From positions 1-28,825 of IMG/VR virus record IMGVR_UViG_2698536355_000015: a DNA stretch of 28,825 bases. One strand, given 5' to 3'. Of the stretch, positions 10,715-26,763 are shown piece after piece. Position 1 is the stretch's first letter. Each line of letters starts with the position of its first letter. The translations under genes and the position numbers were made by a program. The notes below the pieces were generated by a model that ran no database searches, was not told the origin of the DNA, and saw only the letters and a list, made by a program, of their open reading frames with translations. Source of the stretch: a virus (lineage: Duplodnaviria > Heunggongvirae > Uroviricota > Caudoviricetes).

Positions 10715-12529
10715 TTAATAATTCATGGCGGTGGCTATTCTGCCATTATCCTCAACGTTATAAGTTTTTTTCTCTCCCTTATCATTTACCAGAGTTATCT
10801 CCAACTTTAACTTTTGATCAGACATTGCCTCTTTCAGGGATCGGGCAAGATTGTCTGCCATAGCATTACCTACTCCACTAGGTGAACCAGTGATAATTGA
10901 AGTTCCCGGTCCATTGTCAGTACCAGAGGAATGATAGATACTTTGTTCTGTAAAGTTACTTTCTTGTTGGCCTTCATTATTGATTATCCTCTGGTAATGT
11001 CCCAGAACGGCCCCAGGATAGGCCTGATTTTGCTGTCCCCACCGACTGGTATCGTAACCACCGTTGTAATAGCGGAGCGCCAGCGGAACATTTCCGCCGG
11101 ACCTTTTCAGGTTCTCAGATAAGATTTGTGCCCCAGCCATAATGTTCTGCCGCGGATCGGTCCAGTCCGTTATCCCGGTCGACCGGAAATTTGACGGCAT
11201 AATCTGCATTAACCCTCGGGCGTCAGCACTACTAACTGCATATGGATTCCCGTTAGACTCCTGGGTCATTATGGCCTTCAGCAGGCGGGGATCCACACCA
11301 TATTGCTTGCCGGCTTCATTGAGTAGATCGTCATACTGTCCGCCCTGGTTATACGGTACATAGTTATTGCCGCCGACAGCAGGTCGGGTAATGGCAGCCA
11401 TATCGTCCTGCAGCTGGTTCGCCGTATCCGTCGCCCGGTAATTCGCATCGTAGCGTTTGCTCACAGCATCCGTCATAAACCCGGCATCCACCATCCCGCG
11501 CTCGCTGCGGGGCAGGCTGTTATAGAGTTCCTTGTCACCCTGAATACGGCGCAGTTTGGCCGCGTCCGCGCTGCTGATAAACCCCAGCGCATGCGACAGG
11601 CCGGTGAAATCGCCGTTGGTAAACAGGTCTGTCACGCCCTCGAGGCCGTCTTTCACCGACCCGTCGGAAAGCAGGCCTTTGAACAGCTTATTCTGCGATC
11701 GTTGCTTCAGTCCGTCCCATGAGGCGCCCAGTTCGTTCATCGTGCCGTTGATATCGGACAGTTGTTTATTAAGTTCGGGATCGACCGTCAGCCCGAACGT
11801 ATCGGATTTTGCCAGCAGGGTTTTCATGCGTTCACCTTCACGCATCAGCGCCAGCATTTCAGGGGTAAAACCCATCGCATCCGCGACAGATTTTTGCTGC
11901 TCGGGTCGCAACGTCGGGAACACACGCGCGATCTCTTCCATGGTTTTGAGCGTATCGACTGAACCATCCTTGTTTTTCTGGATCTGCACACCAATCTGCG
12001 ATAACGCGCCAAGTACCTGACCGTTTGCCCCGCTGGCCGCTTCCTTCAGCGTTTTTGCCATCCCTTCAATCGATGCATTTGCGCTTTCGCTGTCAGCCCC
12101 CAGAATACGCATGGCGCCAGCGAGCCTGGTAAAGTCATCAACCCGCATACCGGCGTTTTTCGATGCTGTATCCAGGTTGTACGCCTCCCGGGATGCTTCC
12201 CGAAAACCGTAGGCAACCTGCTGAAGGCCATATCCTGCTGCCCCAACAGCACCGAGCGCGCCCAGCTTGCCGGAGATTTCCCCCACCATTTTTAGCGGGG
12301 GAACCATATCACCGATGAACTGCACGTTATCCCGCGCGCTCTTCGACATATTCTCCAGGCGTGAAATAAAACCGTTCAGCCCGTCGACCGTCTCCTGGCC
12401 CCCTAACTGGAGCCCTTCTTTGGTTTTATTCAGCTTCGGCTCAAGATCGCGGATAGCTTCATCAATCCGGGTTATCGCGTCACTGACCTGATCGCTGGCC
12501 ACCAGCTCAAAATCAAAAGAATTACTCAT
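10715..12529 (-). CDS. Tail tape measure protein with lytic transglycosylase (SLT) domain
   Basis: 604 aa, largely Ala/Gly/Leu-rich and helical, directly downstream of the frameshifted chaperone pair; contains a family-1 lytic transglycosylase motif (...AIMTQESNGNPYAVSSADARGLMQIMPSNF...). Confidence 0.75.
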   Translation of the reverse strand: MSNSFDFELVASDQVSDAITRIDEAIRDLEPKLNKTKEGLQLGGQETVDGLNGFISRLENMSKSARDNVQFIGDMVPPLKMVGEISGKLGALGAVGAAGYGLQQVAYGFREASREAYNLDTASKNAGMRVDDFTRLAGAMRILGADSESANASIEGMAKTLKEAASGANGQVLGALSQIGVQIQKNKDGSVDTLKTMEEIARVFPTLRPEQQKSVADAMGFTPEMLALMREGERMKTLLAKSDTFGLTVDPELNKQLSDINGTMNELGASWDGLKQRSQNKLFKGLLSDGSVKDGLEGVTDLFTNGDFTGLSHALGFISSADAAKLRRIQGDKELYNSLPRSERGMVDAGFMTDAVSKRYDANYRATDTANQLQDDMAAITRPAVGGNNYVPYNQGGQYDDLLNEAGKQYGVDPRLLKAIMTQESNGNPYAVSSADARGLMQIMPSNFRSTGITDWTDPRQNIMAGAQILSENLKRSGGNVPLALRYYNGGYDTSRWGQQNQAYPGAVLGHYQRIINNEGQQESNFTEQSIYHSSGTDNGPGTSIITGSPSGVGNAMADNLARSLKEAMSDQKLKLEITLVNDKGEKKTYNVEDNGRIATAMNY

Positions 12530-19241: not shown

Positions 19242-20875
19242 TTTTCCTCCGGGTCTTTAATCGTTTCGGGGGCAAATACATCAGCCTGCGCCCAGCTGGG
19301 TAGCGGCAGCCCGCGTTTCTTACAGGCATCAATTTCACGCTGGCGCTGATCGAGCACTTCTTCCCAGTCTTCACCGACGTTCTCACCCACCTCAATTTCG
19401 AGGGTGGAAAGCCCGGCATCCAGGCCAAGAATGGCGCCTTTCTTCTCTGCAACCGGATCCACCCAGCCGCGGCCCGGCCCCATCCAGCGCGCGCGGGAAT
19501 AGGCTGCTCTGGCGTCAACAAAATCCGGTGCGCCGGCAGGCAGGGGTAAATCCTCGTTGTCGTGCACTTCCTCGGCAAAAGCGGTCACCACAGGTTGTGC
19601 GGTTCCCATGGCGAAATCGTCGCGGCGCCGGGTCAGCGTCTTCCAGGCCTCCAGCAGCGAAGAGCGCGCGGAGCTGTAGTTAACGTCAGACCAGTCCTGG
19701 GTGACCTGCTGCGGCGATAAGCCGGTACCGGAGGAGAAATTGCGCAGCACGGCAGACTCGAACACCTCGAAGTTGCTGTAGGGCCGCGCCGCATTGACCG
19801 TGGTGATTTTTTCTCCGGGGTAAAGAATGGGCATACGGGCTCCGTTCTGCAGCGTCAGGCGCCGGTCAGTATGAAATTCGACACGCCCGTCCTGATAAGC
19901 ACCCAGCTCGGATTCGTCATAGTTTTCACCCAACGCCGACTGCACCATCGCAGGGTCATAGGGTGACTCGATATAGGCTGCAAAAATGGCGTTGAGAATA
20001 GCGGCCTCGAGCTCACTCTGGTCGTACTTCACCAGCATTTTCAGGCGCTGGACCACCGGCGTCAGAATGCCGTTTCCGCGATGCTGCGCACCGCGCTCAT
20101 GGTCAAAGTCATGTACCACATGCGGGCGTCCCCATGCCGTCTCGCGCGGGATACGCTGCCAGGTCATGGTTTTGGCCCCGCTCCACCAGTCACCGATATG
20201 GGCTTCCCGGATGTGGTAGGCCACCGGCGCACCGTCGGCGTCAATCTCCACGCCGCCACGGATATGCGGCATATCGAAATTCTGCTGCGGATTGCTGAGG
20301 CGATCAGGATCGACAACCTGCACCGTGGTGGCATAGCGCCCCCGACCTCGCCCCAGCCGGTCCGTCCGGTACTGGAGCACCAGCAGCGCATCACCATCGA
20401 TTAACTTATGGCGAAATGCCAGCCGCAGCATCTGAGGAACCGTCAGCTTGCGCTCGGCATCGCAGTAGCGCCCGGGGTCATATGCCCAGGTTCGCCAGTG
20501 CGCCTCCAGTGCCTTGCCATACTCTTCAGCCCACGTGGCATCGAATGACGGGTTCCCGGTCATCATCCTGAGTACCCGGTGATCCGGTTTCATAATGGGG
20601 CGGAAGTTTGCACCGACAGCATTGTCCAGCAGGCGGGTCACCGCACCGTTAGCCCAGCCATCGTTACGGACCAGATCCCGCGCGCGGGAAACAATCCGGT
20701 CCCGGTAGATGTTGATTTCGTTATCCGGCGACCAGAGCGCCGGCTGCCAGTTCGCCAGCTGGTCACTGAACGAATCCGCCGCGTCATAGGGCACGCGGCT
20801 GCCGCCCACCAGCATCGAGGGCCGCGCCGGGCGTACCGGCTGACCATCCGGCCCCAGTATCTGTACTTTATTCAT
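19238..20875 (-). CDS. Portal protein (lambda gpB family)
   Basis: 545 aa versus lambda gpB 533 aa; shared segment DLVRNDGWANGAV versus lambda DLVRNNGYAANAI; lies between the gpW-like and protease genes. Confidence 0.85.
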   Translation of the reverse strand: MNKVQILGPDGQPVRPARPSMLVGGSRVPYDAADSFSDQLANWQPALWSPDNEINIYRDRIVSRARDLVRNDGWANGAVTRLLDNAVGANFRPIMKPDHRVLRMMTGNPSFDATWAEEYGKALEAHWRTWAYDPGRYCDAERKLTVPQMLRLAFRHKLIDGDALLVLQYRTDRLGRGRGRYATTVQVVDPDRLSNPQQNFDMPHIRGGVEIDADGAPVAYHIREAHIGDWWSGAKTMTWQRIPRETAWGRPHVVHDFDHERGAQHRGNGILTPVVQRLKMLVKYDQSELEAAILNAIFAAYIESPYDPAMVQSALGENYDESELGAYQDGRVEFHTDRRLTLQNGARMPILYPGEKITTVNAARPYSNFEVFESAVLRNFSSGTGLSPQQVTQDWSDVNYSSARSSLLEAWKTLTRRRDDFAMGTAQPVVTAFAEEVHDNEDLPLPAGAPDFVDARAAYSRARWMGPGRGWVDPVAEKKGAILGLDAGLSTLEIEVGENVGEDWEEVLDQRQREIDACKKRGLPLPSWAQADVFAPETIKDPEEK

Positions 20876-21138
20876 CAGAATCGAAACCTCGCTGGTTTCC
20901 GCGGACGCGAGATAATGCCCAGCTGCGCCTGCAGGAGCTGGATCAGCGCCAGCAGGTCAGCCAGGGTACTTTGCTGGTAGGACACGGATCGCGTTCCGTC
21001 TCCCTGGGAATAGGAAAACGAAACACCGTGGCTCCCGGTCGCTAAATCAATGTAGGCCTGCTGGGCCTTGGCGAGCGCAGCCCTGAGCTGCTCATCGGTC
21101 ATCGCGCCGGCAAGCAGGCTGGTGTTCCGGTTAAACAT
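20875..21138 (-). CDS. Head-tail joining / head completion protein gpW-like
   Basis: Small protein between TerL and portal with a lambda gpW-like pattern (...DLATGSHGVSFSY...RSVSYQQSTLADLLALIQLLQAQLG...); the true start may be the internal Met (MTDEQLRAAL). Confidence 0.7.
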   Translation of the reverse strand: MFNRNTSLLAGAMTDEQLRAALAKAQQAYIDLATGSHGVSFSYSQGDGTRSVSYQQSTLADLLALIQLLQAQLGIISRPRKPARFRF

Positions 21139-21146
21139 AATTATCC

Positions 21147-23276
21147 TTATTGCGGCAGGAGTTTTGACAGTCGCTTACGTTTGACGGGAGCAGGCTCTTC
21201 AATAACGGCCCCCGGCAATTCGTAGCTGATGGTTTCTTCCGGTCCGGCCGGTGCTGGCAGGAATTTGTCCGGGTTGGCTTCCAGGTTCGCGGCGCGTACG
21301 TTCAGCTTGAGTCCCATGTGCATCAGGCCACACAGCGCGGCGTAGCTATACACCCTACAGTCGAGCGCTTCGTTTGCCCTGCCGGGAATGGCTTCCCAGA
21401 CGCTGAAGCGCTGCCCGGCAATGACTTTGTACACAAGGCGCTCAGCCAGCAGCTGGTTGAAATAGCCGATATCCCGATCGTCAGGGAAATGCATATACCC
21501 CGGCGCGGCCATACCCGGCGCAGGTGGCTCGATATGCAGCCGCCCGCGGATCACATCCTTCGCGGAGTTGACCCCCAGAATGATCGGCCGGAACTGCGCC
21601 TTGCTCTTCGATGAAGGACGTTTGGTTGGCCAGACCGGATTTCGCTTCCCGCCCTGCGCCGATTCACCTTTGACAGCCCAGATTCGGCGATTGAGCCGCT
21701 CTTTCGCAAACTCGTAGACCTTCTGGGTATGGTGACCGCCGGAGTCATGGCAGGCCGCCATAATGGTCAGTCCCCTGCCATCGTTCCGGCGCCATATCTG
21801 CTTCAGGTACGCATCCAGACGCCGCCAGGGTTCATCCGTTTCCAGATCGCCGTAGATGACATCATGGGAGACAGACCAGGACTCCTCGTTTTTACCCCAG
21901 CCTGTCACTTCGATTTCGAAGCGATCATCCTGGGTATCAATCCCGGCCGTCAGCAGGGCAACACCATCCGGCACTTTCGCCGGAAAGACCTCTCGGCGAG
22001 CCAGCAGGATATCCACCGGCAACTGCTTGCCATGGTTTGGCCGGTGAGGCAGTCCCATCTGGGTATTCCACCAGGCCTGCTCTTTATCCGGGTCCCCCTT
22101 CGCTTTGATGTATTTCTCGGCAATATCGGACGGCTTGTCTTTCTGCCACGGGCTGAACAGTTTGGATGCCTGATACCCGGCATGGTGGTTATCGACGGCC
22201 TCCTGCCCGCACTCCGGACAGACAGCGCGCCAGACTGCATGACGTTCGGATTCCGACCATCGCCACACCTTTTCAACACTGCCCTCATCCTCTGTCCGCC
22301 AGGCCAGGTCATAATCCATCAGCGGGGAATGCCGCTCTCCGCAGCACTCGAACGGTCGGGTCTGGTGCCAGCGGATGGTCTGCAGCGCCCTTAGCCGCTC
22401 CCCCTCGGACCAGCCAGCGCCGCAGCACTCACAGTGGAGCATCGCTGATTTGGTCAGGTGTTTATCCCCGTCCTTCGGCCACTGAACGTGTTTAAAAAAG
22501 TCAGGGAACTGTCGGTGCCCACAGTGTGGACACACCACCGAGGCCCGGCGCTGGTCAGATTCGGCATAACTGTCGGCAATCCGGCTTTCGTCTTCCACCG
22601 TCGGCGAGCAGGCACGAACCGACAGCCAGGTGAGGCCAAACGTCGCCGTGCGCTCTTCCGCCAGCGCGATGGGGTCGCCTTCGCGGGTGATCGGGTATTT
22701 ATCCACCTCATCCGCCAGCAGGACACGAATCGGGCGGCGCGCGAGGTTATCGGGACTACCGGCGCCCGCCAGCGCCAGAAAGCCGCCGGTGAACGCCTTA
22801 TAGAGAATGGTTTCTTTCGAGCTCTTCTGCTTTGAGTCGCCGATGATTCTGCGCAGTGCCGGCGTCACCCTCACCAGCGGGCTGATGCGTTCCTTCGAGA
22901 ACTGCTCGGCCGCTTCCTCTTTCGGCTGCAGCAGCAGTATCGGGCAGGGATCGAGATGCGCGAAATAACCAAACAGGTTTTCCAGCAGCGCGGTTTTCAT
23001 CAGCTGAGTGCAGCACATCACCGTAATGATGTGAACGCCTGATTCTGTCGCCGCCAGCATCGGGCCGCGGGCGATCTCCACGGTGGACGTCTCCCAGTTG
23101 CCCGACGTACTCCCGGCTTCCTTCGCCAGCTTGCGATAATCATCAGCCCACTGCGGAACGCTGATCCTCGGCGGTGGCGTCCAGCCTTTTCGTACGCTCA
23201 GCTCAAGACGCTCAATCTTCAGCCGGGTTAAATTCTGGCTCTCCGAGGACTGAGATATGTTTGTGGACATGTTCAA
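21147..23276 (-). CDS. terL: Terminase large subunit (lambda gpA family)
   Basis: 709 aa; segment VPDGVALLTAGIDTQDDRFEIEVTGWGKNEESW matches lambda gpA VPDRVAYLTAGIDSQLDRYEMRVWGWGPGEESW; overlaps the end of the TerS gene. Confidence 0.9.
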   Translation of the reverse strand: MNMSTNISQSSESQNLTRLKIERLELSVRKGWTPPPRISVPQWADDYRKLAKEAGSTSGNWETSTVEIARGPMLAATESGVHIITVMCCTQLMKTALLENLFGYFAHLDPCPILLLQPKEEAAEQFSKERISPLVRVTPALRRIIGDSKQKSSKETILYKAFTGGFLALAGAGSPDNLARRPIRVLLADEVDKYPITREGDPIALAEERTATFGLTWLSVRACSPTVEDESRIADSYAESDQRRASVVCPHCGHRQFPDFFKHVQWPKDGDKHLTKSAMLHCECCGAGWSEGERLRALQTIRWHQTRPFECCGERHSPLMDYDLAWRTEDEGSVEKVWRWSESERHAVWRAVCPECGQEAVDNHHAGYQASKLFSPWQKDKPSDIAEKYIKAKGDPDKEQAWWNTQMGLPHRPNHGKQLPVDILLARREVFPAKVPDGVALLTAGIDTQDDRFEIEVTGWGKNEESWSVSHDVIYGDLETDEPWRRLDAYLKQIWRRNDGRGLTIMAACHDSGGHHTQKVYEFAKERLNRRIWAVKGESAQGGKRNPVWPTKRPSSKSKAQFRPIILGVNSAKDVIRGRLHIEPPAPGMAAPGYMHFPDDRDIGYFNQLLAERLVYKVIAGQRFSVWEAIPGRANEALDCRVYSYAALCGLMHMGLKLNVRAANLEANPDKFLPAPAGPEETISYELPGAVIEEPAPVKRKRLSKLLPQ

Positions 23277-23775
23277 TCAGCACCTCTGTCATCCTGTCCG
23301 CCGGTACATCCAGATCAGCAGCCATCAGCGGCGCCACCCTGGACGGCCAGTTGAGCCAGGCATCGCGCTGCTGGCGAAAGGCGTTGAAAAGAACCTCCTC
23401 GGCGACCACCAGCTCAACGAGCTGGCCACTGTCTTTTTCGTACTGCAGTTTGGCCTGCAGGGCCATATAGTTTTCGCGGATACGCGCCGCCTCCTCCCGC
23501 GAAAGGTCTGCGCCTTCGGTGAGCATTATCTGGCGTACGGTATTCTCGATGTCATCCCCGTCATCATCGCTGGCAACAGGGGTTTTCTTTTTCTTCGCGT
23601 TCGAAGCGCGCGGGTCTTTGCCATCGCGGTTTTTCTTCAGTGCGGCATCGCTGGCCTCAACATCAATCAGGTCCCCATCCATCACAATGAAGCGACCCGC
23701 TTTAATCCAGCGTCCGATGGTCTTGCGATCGACACCCGAATGTTGTGCGTACTGACTCTGGTTCATCGTGGTCAT
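23212..23775 (-). CDS. terS: Terminase small subunit (lambda Nu1-like)
   Basis: 187 aa immediately upstream of and overlapping TerL; N-terminal DNA-binding-type region (MNQSQYAQHSGVDRKTIGRWIKAG) resembles the Nu1 N-terminus. Confidence 0.7.
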   Translation of the reverse strand: MTTMNQSQYAQHSGVDRKTIGRWIKAGRFIVMDGDLIDVEASDAALKKNRDGKDPRASNAKKKKTPVASDDDGDDIENTVRQIMLTEGADLSREEAARIRENYMALQAKLQYEKDSGQLVELVVAEEVLFNAFRQQRDAWLNWPSRVAPLMAADLDVPADRMTEVLIEHVHKHISVLGEPEFNPAED

Positions 23776-23922
23776 GGGACATCACCTGGGACATTTTCAG
23801 GGGTGGGACATTTACCTGGGACATTTTTGCGATGTCCCACCGGAATGTCCCACTGGAATAAACAGGAATAGCCAGCACTGGTGCGGTGTCAGGCGCGATC
23901 GCCCCGGGTGGGACATGGGACA
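23775..23922. repeat. Array of about 8 copies of TGGGACAT in both orientations (putative cosB-like terminase-binding sites)
   Basis: Direct copies near 23775, 23787, 23804, 23817, 23909 and 23916; inverted copies (ATGTCCCA) near 23832 and 23845. The first copy overlaps the TerS start codon. Confidence 0.5.
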
Positions 23923-24016
23923 CAAATCTGAAACCTGTAGCTAGGAAAACACCGCGGCGCGCAATGCCCGTGCAATATGATCCCCTCAGGAAGGACCCAA
24001 ACCCACCGGGGCGGGG

Positions 24017-24370
24017 TCACAAGGCATGCTGGAAAAGAAAAATACGCGTGATGCTATCCTGACGGAAATGGAAACGGTCACGGGCAATGTTTAATAATCC
24101 ACCTTCCCCGAACCGCTCAAACTCTTCGGCGCAGCGTATGGCATCATCAAAAACATAAATATCGGGCGGCGGTAATGTGAAGCTTCTCACGTTGTCTGCA
24201 GGGAGAATACGGCCACCAAAGAGGCCTGGGCGGATATTATTCACATCACGCATCGTGGGTACGATTAATTGCACGTGCAAGCCAGCTGCTTCAAATCCAC
24301 TCGCTAATGCCAGTGCGGCGCTCGTCATTCCACTGTGGCGCTTAATAAGAATTGTTGCTGTGTTGCTCAT
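24017..24370 (-). CDS. Hypothetical protein (cos-proximal, unknown function)
   Basis: 117-aa ORF with GC content like the phage core, 7 nt downstream of the 227-aa gene; no recognisable family. Confidence 0.4.
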   Translation of the reverse strand: MSNTATILIKRHSGMTSAALALASGFEAAGLHVQLIVPTMRDVNNIRPGLFGGRILPADNVRSFTLPPPDIYVFDDAIRCAEEFERFGEGGLLNIARDRFHFRQDSITRIFLFQHAL

Positions 24371-24377
24371 GATGTCC

Positions 24378-25061
24378 TCATTTTGCTGTTCGGAGCGCCT
24401 CCGCTATCGCCTGATTCAACGCAGATGGTAGCAGCGCGTTCGCCATGGTGTTTGCCCGGTCCATATAGCCCAGCGAGGGTTTTACTGGCAGCGCGTTGCC
24501 AAAGCGGATAAGCAGTTTTGGCGCACGTTGTTTAACCTTCTCCCGACGCGTTCCATTCGGCGAGCGTTTCGCCCGCTTCTTCCCTTTCCTGGTCCTGGCC
24601 TTTCTGCGCTGCCAGACAGAGTTAACACCGCCGACATCACCGATGAAGGTGTTTGGCTTCGCCTTGAGCTGAGAAAGCTTATTACGCGGCAGGTTGCCGA
24701 ATTTATTCAGCTTAATGTCTTTGGGGTTGAGCAGAGCGCTACCGTTGAGCTTATGTTCGCCGCCAAACTCAAACGGATCGAGGTAATCCGCGGCAGTATC
24801 GCGGACGAACACTTTCGCGTGCAGACTGTTTTTTCGGGCAGCCACAGAGCCGACCGACTTCACGGTGAAAGGTGTGGGATTATCCAGATGGCGCTCGAAC
24901 GCCGTTTTCTGAGCCGTTTCTATCTGCCGAACGACCTTTGTCATCGCCTGCGCTGTAGCGAAGGGGATTTGCTTCTGAAGCTGCCGCAACTGACTGGAAA
25001 GGTCTTTAAGTGTTGCCATGACAGTCTCCGCAATTATTGCCATTATGATGGGGCTCCCCAT
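24378..25061 (-). CDS. Hypothetical protein with highly basic Lys/Arg-rich segment (possible nucleic-acid-binding protein)
   Basis: 227-aa ORF containing WQRRKARTRKGKKRAKRSPNGTRREKVKQRAPK; no recognisable family. Confidence 0.45.
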   Translation of the reverse strand: MGSPIIMAIIAETVMATLKDLSSQLRQLQKQIPFATAQAMTKVVRQIETAQKTAFERHLDNPTPFTVKSVGSVAARKNSLHAKVFVRDTAADYLDPFEFGGEHKLNGSALLNPKDIKLNKFGNLPRNKLSQLKAKPNTFIGDVGGVNSVWQRRKARTRKGKKRAKRSPNGTRREKVKQRAPKLLIRFGNALPVKPSLGYMDRANTMANALLPSALNQAIAEALRTAK

Positions 25062-25801: not shown

Positions 25802-26281
25802 TTATTTGAGGCACTGCGTGGTGATGTATTCCTGCAGGCCGCTCACTTGTTTGGTGATAACGCTAATTCGCTCTCTGAGGGTGAAATAATCCCGTTGAGC
25901 GGCGTCAGTAAGTCGGGGGCCGGTTGCATCATCCACGCCGGTGGCGCCGGAGGTATTACCCTTGGGGCAGGTGGCGTTGATGTGCAGCCCACACTTGCCA
26001 GAACGAACACACTGCTGAAGAGCATCAAGCTGCTTTTTCGCATCAGCTAACTCCTTTGTGTATTTGGCATCCAGCGCAGCGACGTCGCGCTGCCGGGTCT
26101 GCATGTCGGTTATGGTGGCGTTCGCCAGCGTCAGGGCGGATGTGGCTTTATCGCGCTGGTCTTTGTAGGTGATGGCGTTGTCGCGGTAGTGGTTCACTGC
26201 CAGTAACAGCACGCCGATAACTGCAAATACCAGAATCGGCAGCCATAGCTTTTTCAGCGCTGCGAAGATGGCTTCACTCAT
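25802..26281 (-). CDS. Rz: Inner-membrane spanin Rz (i-spanin)
   Basis: Strong identity to lambda Rz ([13 protein letters not shown]...[24 protein letters not shown]...RDYFTLRER); N-terminal transmembrane helix. Confidence 0.85.
25843..26043 (-). CDS. Rz1: Outer-membrane lipoprotein spanin Rz1 (o-spanin), embedded in Rz in the +1 frame
   Basis: Lipobox (LASVGC) and Pro-rich segment [14 protein letters not shown]...[11 protein letters not shown], matching lambda Rz1 (PPPPPAWIMQPPPD...[11 protein letters not shown]); lies entirely within Rz. Confidence 0.8.
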
Positions 26282-26763
26282 GGTTTAGACTCGCTCACCT
26301 GACCGCCAGCGGCTTTGAATACCGCGATCAGATTATCCGCTTTGTGCTCAAACTGGCCGTAGCCCGCACCGGGGAGTGAGGCCCATATATTGCTGCAGCG
26401 GTCGATAGCCTGTCGAATGTCTCCGCTGTCGATTAACGGCAGCGCGCCACGCTCCTTAATTTGCTGAAGCGCCACTGCGTCCTGGCTGGCCGGGGAGAAG
26501 TCTTTCAGACCAAGCTGCACCCGGTATGCATCCCACCATTTGGACAGCAGCTGGTAGCGGCCGGCAGCCGTTGATTTCAGTGTTGGGCTAAGCGTGACCA
26601 GCTTTCGGGGGTGATCTGAATAATCGGTAAACAGGGAACCGCCGACAATAACGTCGTATCCGTGGTTATTGGTCTTCTGCCTGCCGTTATCGGTTCCTTC
26701 AGACCAGGCCAGCATATCGAGAAATGCTTTTCGTTGAGGACTCATCGTCTGCATCAGCGCCAC
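26278..26763 (-). CDS. R: Endolysin, lambda R-like lytic transglycosylase
   Basis: Near-identical over most of its length to lambda R ([47 protein letters not shown]...[22 protein letters not shown]). Confidence 0.9.

Follow-up and report, generated by a model that had tools for sequence, protein, structure and literature searches.

We investigated an array of short repeats immediately upstream of the gene for the small terminase subunit (TerS) in a 28,825-bp stretch of viral DNA (IMG/VR record IMGVR_UViG_2698536355_000015; the whole stretch is referred to here as the window). Positions 23775–23998 are very likely the cohesive-end (cos) site of a myovirus prophage with lambda-like packaging, with the array of TGGGACAT repeats as its cosB. 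An earlier note had named the array as a candidate cosB and packaging initiation region. Our analysis supports this reading on three counts. The array is flanked by a lambda-type nick site on one side and the TerS start on the other, with a repeat word that follows the N-terminal domain (N-domain) of TerS; a GC-rich tract beyond the array overlaps a sequence identical to the mapped end of a related phage, Serratia phage vB_SspM_BZS1 (BZS1); and the large terminase subunit (TerL) is of the lambda gpA type.

The earlier note had counted about eight copies within 150 bp, in both orientations, beginning at the TerS start. This count holds, with seven exact copies and one one-mismatch copy in 149 bp (23775–23923). 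Exact copies of TGGGACAT are found on the plus strand at 23775, 23787, 23804, 23817 and 23909, and on the minus strand at 23832 and 23845; the one-mismatch copy, TGGGACAC, is at 23916. Elsewhere in the window there is a single further exact copy, at 10997. In dinucleotide-preserving shuffles of the window the mean is 0.92 copies and the highest count is 4; none of 100 shuffles contains as many as 8. Read in the terS direction, two forward copies come first, then two reverse and four forward, and start-to-start spacings among the 8-bp sites are 7, 12, 13 and 17 bp. The elements of the site, from the distal end towards terS, are as follows.

23988..23998, minus strand: cosQ-like box GGGTCCTTCCT, whose first 7 nt are GGGTCCT (23992–23998).
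23956..23967, minus strand: predicted cosN cohesive end GCATTGCGCGCC, a 12-nt 5' overhang, identical to the annotated cosL of BZS1.
23924..23955, minus strand: I2-like spacer GCGGTGTTTTCCTAGCTACAGGTTTCAGATTT, from the nick site to the first repeats, resembling lambda CGCGGGTTTTCGCTATTTATGAAAATTTT.
23909..23923, minus strand: distal repeat doublet GTGTCCCATGTCCCA, two forward copies with a one-base overlap, at bp 45–59 from the predicted left end.
23853–23908: 56-bp spacer from the doublet to the reverse pair.
23855..23870, minus strand: TATTCC-N4-TATTCC element, in the 56-bp spacer at its proximal end and immediately upstream of the reverse pair.
23832–23839 and 23845–23852, plus strand: R2-like block of two reverse copies, 13 bp apart, with ATGTCCCA on the plus strand.
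23817–23824, 23804–23811, 23787–23794 and 23775–23782, minus strand: R1-like block of four forward copies of ATGTCCCA, with start-to-start distances of 13, 17 and 12 bp.
23782..23787, minus strand: Shine-Dalgarno-like AGGTGA (read from the sequence), 6 nt upstream of the TerS ATG and bridging the last two copies.

An A-tract, CGCAAAAA, lies between the R1-like forward block and the reverse block.

The position of the cohesive end is taken from the closest isolated phages, which by TerS are BZS1 and Citrobacter phage phiNP. The BZS1 record opens with an annotated 12-nt cosL, GCATTGCGCGCC, and BZS1 TerS starts at base 75. The left end of BZS1 is GCATTGCGCGCCGCGTTCTGCGTCTAGCTA and its right end terminates in GGGTCCTTCCCTGCACTTTTGTAAAGCACGG. 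The cohesive end was determined with PhageTerm on virion reads and by sequencing the phage ends in comparison with a polymerase chain reaction product across the prophage cos (PMC7556043). On the minus strand of the window, the sequence around the nick is CACGG / GCATTGCGCGCC / GCGGTGTTTTCCTAGCTA. Because this is identical, flanks included, to the mapped BZS1 end, we place the cohesive end of the window at 23956–23967, where homology to BZS1 predicts a 12-nt 5' overhang. The GC-rich tract at about 23952–23962 that the earlier note had pointed out is indeed present, and it overlaps this cohesive end. The note had expected cosN 100–250 bp beyond the array; cosN is instead placed 33 bp past the distal repeat and 181–192 bp upstream of the TerS start, so that the start codon is at bp 193 from the predicted left end. 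Within the searchable literature, the overhang sequence occurs in a phage context only in the BZS1 paper, which describes no cosB (PMC7556043).

The nick site and its surroundings are shared by a large group of relatives. A near-identity search against isolated phages gave no match, and a distant search of isolated phages with the cos core returned phiNP only. At least 119 IMG/VR contigs contain a conserved 20-mer core (CACGGGCATTGCGCGCCGCG, spanning 23953–23972 in the window). Scanning with the repeat doublet as well added contigs with slightly different cores, and more than 200 related viral contigs keep the nick site with differing repeat words. In 59 complete E. coli genomes there is a prophage that is approximately 87.6% identical over 23101–24016 of the window, and the similarity ends at 24016. 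GGGTCCT begins 31 nt upstream of the predicted top-strand nick, and the cosQ-like box is invariant across 40 distinct close relatives; of 121 related loci, 96 have GGTCCTTCC upstream of the core at a fixed distance from it, and these span all TerS types. CTAGCTA and the T-rich run of the I2-like spacer are kept in nearly all TerS types. Of the 84 loci in which the nick-to-doublet distance was measurable, 82 agree to within 1 nt, and at that distance every repeat-bearing TerS class carries a doublet made of its own word.

Some features around the nick were noted separately. By eye, twofold symmetry around the predicted nick is weak (approximately 4 of 11 positions), and it was not used. A GC-rich inverted repeat of 12–13 nt (CGCCCCGGGTGGG / CCCACCGGGGCG; 23900–23912 and 24002–24013) is roughly symmetric around the predicted nick, and by eye it is not retained in the E. 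coli relatives. Two contigs, L138 and L173 (L numbers are our labels for related loci), begin at positions 11–12 of the 12-nt overhang; these may be real virion ends or assembly breaks at repeats and were not used as evidence.

An alignment of the 40 distinct close relatives reveals strong purifying selection on the repeats relative to the spacers. Repeat columns are 99.3% conserved, compared to 73.6% for the other intergenic columns from the TerS start to 23934 (Mann-Whitney, p = 6e-11) and 63% for third codon positions of terS. When only the proximal array is considered, the values are 99.3% for repeats and 81% for spacers. The TATTCC-N4-TATTCC element is invariant or nearly so in the same relatives, and the rest of the 56-bp spacer is variable; the element may be a decayed 13-bp repeat unit, a bend site or a site for another factor. 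Of 89 distinct arrays of the window's word, 85 retain the forward-reverse-forward order. Copy number in these 89 arrays ranges from 5 to 10, with the forward copies before the reverse block varying in number, and the pattern of the window is the commonest (33/89).

The earlier note had recommended comparing the motif across related prophages. In this comparison the nick site is kept, and in each of the 104 loci that were classified the word goes with the TerS N-domain (the word was called as the most frequent 7-mer in +40 to +340). The N-domains, named by a characteristic stretch of sequence, and their words are listed here.

...VDRKTIGRWIKAG (the window) and two related forms: ATGTCCCA.
...VSRKTVT.WK.RGW (BZS1, phiNP and others): GGTAACA.
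...MSRRAFYNWE: TTCACAC / TTGACAC.
Two ...VRRA-type N-domains: GTTCGCA or GTCCGCA.
...ISQQAVSDLL: no evident repeat.

Among loci with [DN]RKTI.RW[IM]K, all 58 have TGGGACA as their top 7-mer; among those with S[RK]KT[VA]..WK, all 46 have GGTAACA (in one of them as GGGTAAC, the same word with a one-base shift). The loci missed by the regular expression carry the same N-domain with small changes. The words GTGTCAA, GTTCGCA and GTCCGCA accompany further N-domains. One locus, L187, is a degenerate remnant of this cos with an altered core (CACGAGCATTGCGCACCG), a few repeats and no terS downstream.

TerS itself is modular. In alignments, it has a variable N-domain of approximately 50 residues, a variable linker and a C-terminal domain (C-domain) that is near-identical between some classes. 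Two recombinant classes, with identities given relative to the window, separate the N-domain from the C-domain.

L012, L017, L033 and others: N-domain 69–73% and C-domain 24–31% identical; word TGGGACA.
L030, L063 and L115: N-domain 50–52% and C-domain 80–81% identical; word GGTAACA.

The word thus goes with the N-domain and not with the rest of TerS, TerL or the upstream gene. All four N/C combinations occur naturally, suggesting that the specificity domain is exchangeable independently of the TerL-interacting domain.

In L002 (phiNP, at approximately +230 to +320 from the core), L007, L027 and L041, there is a second multi-copy array of the same word inside terS, in the linker-coding part. 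Such in-gene arrays occur where terS begins right after the first repeats. They are DNA sites within a gene and therefore impose peptide repeats, for example Gly-Asn from GGTAAC, and they resemble a multiplied version of the rR2 element of phage N15. The ISQQAVSDLL class is found in GC-rich hosts and shares the cosN core and the cosQ-like box, with terS starting approximately 58 nt after the core. The TerS family is named 'hypothetical protein' in nearly all of the 120 clusters listed, which come from Enterobacter, Klebsiella, Raoultella, Citrobacter, Yersinia, Serratia and others. Since ATGTCCCAT reads as Met-Ser-His, the start of terS is placed too far upstream, within the array, by open reading frame (ORF) finders and in some database entries, for example as MSHADVPMSHNPGMS; P0053 and ORFs in L012, L017 and L033 are examples of this over-extension.

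The array sits in the lysis-terminase-head late region of a prophage with a lambda-type cos-cutting terminase. The packaging genes of the region are on the minus strand, and the 187-aa TerS ORF overlaps the downstream 709-aa TerL ORF.

26278–26763: endolysin, an upstream lysis gene.
25802–26281: Rz, an upstream lysis gene.
24017–24370, minus strand: 117-aa ORF between a conserved 213-aa gene and cos.
23212..23775, minus strand: TerS, 187 aa, immediately upstream of TerL (phrog_57 'terminase small subunit', E 6e-36).
21147..23276, minus strand: TerL of the lambda gpA type, 709 aa (Pfam GpA_ATPase, 4.7e-65; GpA_nuclease, 1.3e-77).
20875–21138, minus strand: gpW gene, 87 aa, following TerL.

A sequence search with TerL against PDB gave no match. 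A headful (pac) site was considered and rejected: TerL is of the gpA type, and the cohesive ends of BZS1, the closest isolated phage, are defined. Relatives vary in the gene that lies upstream of cos, and homology resumes 18 bp before the cosQ-like box. TerS is the sole neighboring gene that travels with the array. The E. coli genomes described above have a 213-aa gene, 89% identical to window 24378–25061, directly upstream of cos; the 117-aa ORF therefore represents an extra insertion in the window. This ORF has no match in Pfam, PHROGs, NCBIfam or PADLOC, and it resembles a moron-type insertion at the cos boundary. The gene at 24378–25061 (minus strand) is located between the lysis cassette and cos. 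It has a match to PHROG 1924 'minor tail protein' (4e-61) and a weak one to a tail-completion family. Homologues are at the same place in BZS1 (p72) and phiNP. For a tail gene this location is unusual; alternatively, the PHROG 1924 label is doubtful.

The arrangement in the window resembles lambda in many respects. A gpA-type TerL is followed by gpW in both, and in both the repeats lie between cosN and terS. The joined cos of lambda reads GGGTCCTTTCC-N19-ACG / GGGCGGCGACCT / CGCGGGTTTTCGCTATTTATGAAAATTTT...R3. GGGTCCT starts 30 nt before the lambda nick (GGGTCCTTTCC at the lambda right end), compared to 31 nt in the window, and the string in lambda (bp 48473–48479) is presumably cosQ. Feiss et al. 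(2015, PMC4669245) describe cosQ as a highly conserved element of 7 bp. The overhangs differ (GGGCGGCGACCT in lambda and GCATTGCGCGCC in the window), while the sequences that follow them, GCGGTGTTTTCC..CTA in the window and CGCGGGTTTTCGCTA in lambda, share a similar GTTTTC..CTA. The start codon of TerS is at bp 193 in the window and that of Nu1 is at bp 191 in lambda. The doublet at bp 45–59 is in the position of lambda R3, whose critical bases are bp 55–63 (PMC9026076). The R2 site of lambda has the opposite orientation to R3 and R1 (Feiss et al. 2015, PMC4669245), and the middle block of the window is likewise inverted, following the order R3, R2, R1. There are also clear differences: the word is the 8-bp ATGTCCCA in the window and a CGTTTCC-type R sequence in lambda; the window has eight sites (2+2+4) and lambda three; lambda has an I1 site for integration host factor (IHF), whereas the cos of the window is without an IHF consensus; TerS of the window is not detectably of the Nu1 family; and the window belongs to a myovirus, lambda being a siphovirus.

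BZS1 and phiNP share with the window the cosN core, overhang, cosQ-like box, spacer, gpA-type TerL and gpW, together with a repeat doublet or triplet at the window's distance from the nick. They differ in their word (GGTAACA), in their N-domain (SRKTV..WK type) and in having a second array inside terS. Furthermore, their TerS starts only 74–79 nt from the nick or core, and its C-domain is 22–30% identical to that of the window. A 'simple' cosB, as in N15, has been distinguished from the 'complex' cosB of Monarch and lambda (Feiss et al. 2015, PMC4669245). The window has the 'complex' pattern, with all sites upstream of terS. A parallel to the 'simple' cosB of N15 is seen in BZS1, phiNP and the other classes with in-gene arrays, which combine sites at the R3 position with extra inverted or direct copies within terS; N15 rR2 is at bp 249–260, inside terS (PMC4669245). 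N15 differs from this cos family in cohesive end, words and TerS family, and its in-gene element is a single rR2 whereas here it is multi-copy. Lambda and phage 21 have the same cosQ and cosN with different cosB and TerS recognition helix (PMC4669245). As in lambda and 21, a constant cutting site is combined with swapped pairs of TerS DNA-binding domain and word that would define specificity classes. Unlike lambda and 21, at least five word/N-domain classes are found on one cosN, with natural N/C recombinants, and specificity here is read from sequence.

These comparisons demonstrate the repeats, their conservation, their fixed geometry to the mapped nick of a relative, and the correspondence of word and N-domain. 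From sequence we infer the remaining steps: TerS would bind the array, the DNA would be bent, and cutting would take place at this exact site in this prophage. Along the minus strand, the elements come as cosQ-like box, cosN, spacer, R3-position doublet, 56-bp spacer, reverse pair, A-tract and a last block of four forward copies that reaches the TerS start. In the proposed mechanism, the N-terminal helix-turn-helix (HTH) domains of an oligomeric TerS would bind the 8-bp words, and DNA bending would bring the opposed blocks of sites together. The resulting complex would position the gpA-type TerL to nick cosN, 45 bp from the doublet, and TerS would stay on the nicked end while the DNA is threaded into the prohead.

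TerS is predicted to have an HTH-like N-terminal domain (residues ~1–50), a disordered linker (~50–75) and a helical C-terminal domain. Its N-terminus has a weak match to residues 3–33 of lambda Nu1 (31 residues, 29% identity, pairwise E 0.039). The recognition helix of Nu1 is residues 17–24, inside the matched region (PMC9026076). An AlphaFold2 model built on a 30-sequence alignment has a strand, helices at residues 6–13 and 17–25, strands, a helix at 39–51, disorder at 50–75 and a helical C-domain. The best Foldseek matches for TerS cover approximately 50 residues and are 7lwr and 7lxs, entries on viral DNA-packaging motors (template-modeling score 0.70 on the target, root-mean-square deviation 2.2 Å, E 0.31). 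Because the model is weak, the Foldseek matches serve as a hint only. The predicted N-domain fits a MerR/Xis-like winged helix, without establishing it.

Several points weigh against the assignment of the array as cosB. TerS matches no family in Pfam or NCBIfam, nor is there a PDB sequence match below E 0.1; PHROG 57 is its one family match. The AlphaFold2 model is of low confidence (predicted local distance difference test 59.8), and the best Foldseek matches, to a small terminase-related DNA-binding domain and to MerR/Xis-like winged helices, all have E > 0.1; after 7lwr and 7lxs come BldC, RacA, Xis and an excisionase. Since the repeats adjoin the N-domain, part of the association between word and N-domain is simple linkage; the recombinant N/C classes reduce this objection but do not remove it. 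TerS genes of the ISQ.AVSDLL class (L010, L029, L054 and L114) share the same cosN and have no obvious repeat word, so arrays are not obligatory in this cos family. Finally, a lambda-type bending step lacks an agent here, as there is no IHF consensus between the R3-like and R2-like blocks. No match to the IHF consensus WATCAANNNNTTR with one mismatch or fewer was found in bp 1–215 of the window cos, while the same scan recovers the I1 site of lambda (bp 78) and, for two other TerS types, a match in the spacers. We therefore do not claim an IHF-dependent bend. In place of such a site, the spacer of the window holds the TATTCC-N4-TATTCC element, which is not an IHF consensus. An elaboration of the cosB reading, which we consider unlikely, is that the eight sites are more than a multiplied R3/R2/R1 and nucleate a BldC/Xis-like head-to-tail filament or wrap of TerS winged-helix domains. 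This would provide an IHF-free bend and would throttle terminase expression through the DNA of the TerS ribosome-binding site (RBS), and gain or loss of copies would tune competition between prophages. If so, the 5–10 copies would tune the rivalry of co-resident prophages that have one cutting site and different words.

Instead of or beside packaging, the array might be a transcriptional operator of the terminase/head operon, either for TerS autoregulation (a roadblock over its own RBS and start) or for another late regulator. The earlier note had observed that the first repeat overlaps the TerS start and had suggested an autoregulatory role. The overlap is confirmed: the T of the first copy, at 23775, is the complement of the A in the TerS ATG (minus strand, 23775–23773). 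The last two copies bracket the Shine-Dalgarno. Of 89 distinct related arrays, 61 have the start overlap (ATGTCCCATG) and another 6 have a degenerate version of it; loci of the GGTAACA type also end a copy 0–2 nt from the start codon. However, a scan of the TerS strand for sigma-70-like promoters and terminators found none in 23776–24016. The overlap is absent in 21 of the 89 arrays, where the last copy ends approximately 20 nt upstream, and in some relatives the start-proximal copy is the one that decays (ATGCCCCATG). Nor would an operator account for a doublet at the R3 position or for the constant distance to cosN. We consider it quite unlikely that this is what the array is for; the autoregulatory suggestion found no support in this analysis, and autoregulation is possibly a side effect rather than the main role.

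The inverted copies could also act as an RNA hairpin in the late transcript, in translational control or processing upstream of the TerS RBS, rather than as protein-binding sites in DNA. Minus-strand RNA from 23765–23870 folds at -34.2 kcal/mol (z = -2.65 compared to shuffles), with arms at 23803–23824 and 23832–23853 that are 82% complementary. However, any array with copies in both orientations automatically has hairpin potential. As read from the sequence, the inter-copy spacers within the arms are unpaired, and since copies change in number and spacing among related arrays, no one stem is conserved. Neither the distal doublet nor the in-gene arrays found in other types have a partner arm, and Rfam gave no credible family match, making this explanation very improbable. 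We consider it more improbable still that the repeats serve replication or partition, as iterons or centromere-like sites, or that they are a tandem duplication without function. Short repeats in both orientations with 12–17 bp spacings do resemble iteron arrays, and the 13-bp units suggest a history of tandem duplication. However, the array is inside the late region with no adjacent replication or partition gene, the word follows the TerS N-domain and no other gene, and the purifying selection described above argues against both iterons and a functionless duplication.

With the array read as cosB, the packaging origin is located for a widespread and unstudied group of Enterobacterales myovirus prophages. 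The site marks where the virion genomes of such prophages should be opened in annotation, and it explains the gene-caller artefacts that extend terS into the repeats. One cutting site with at least five N-domain/word pairings and natural recombinants is a comparative series for how small terminases read DNA, and this series could help predict which helper packages which prophages, satellites and cosmids.

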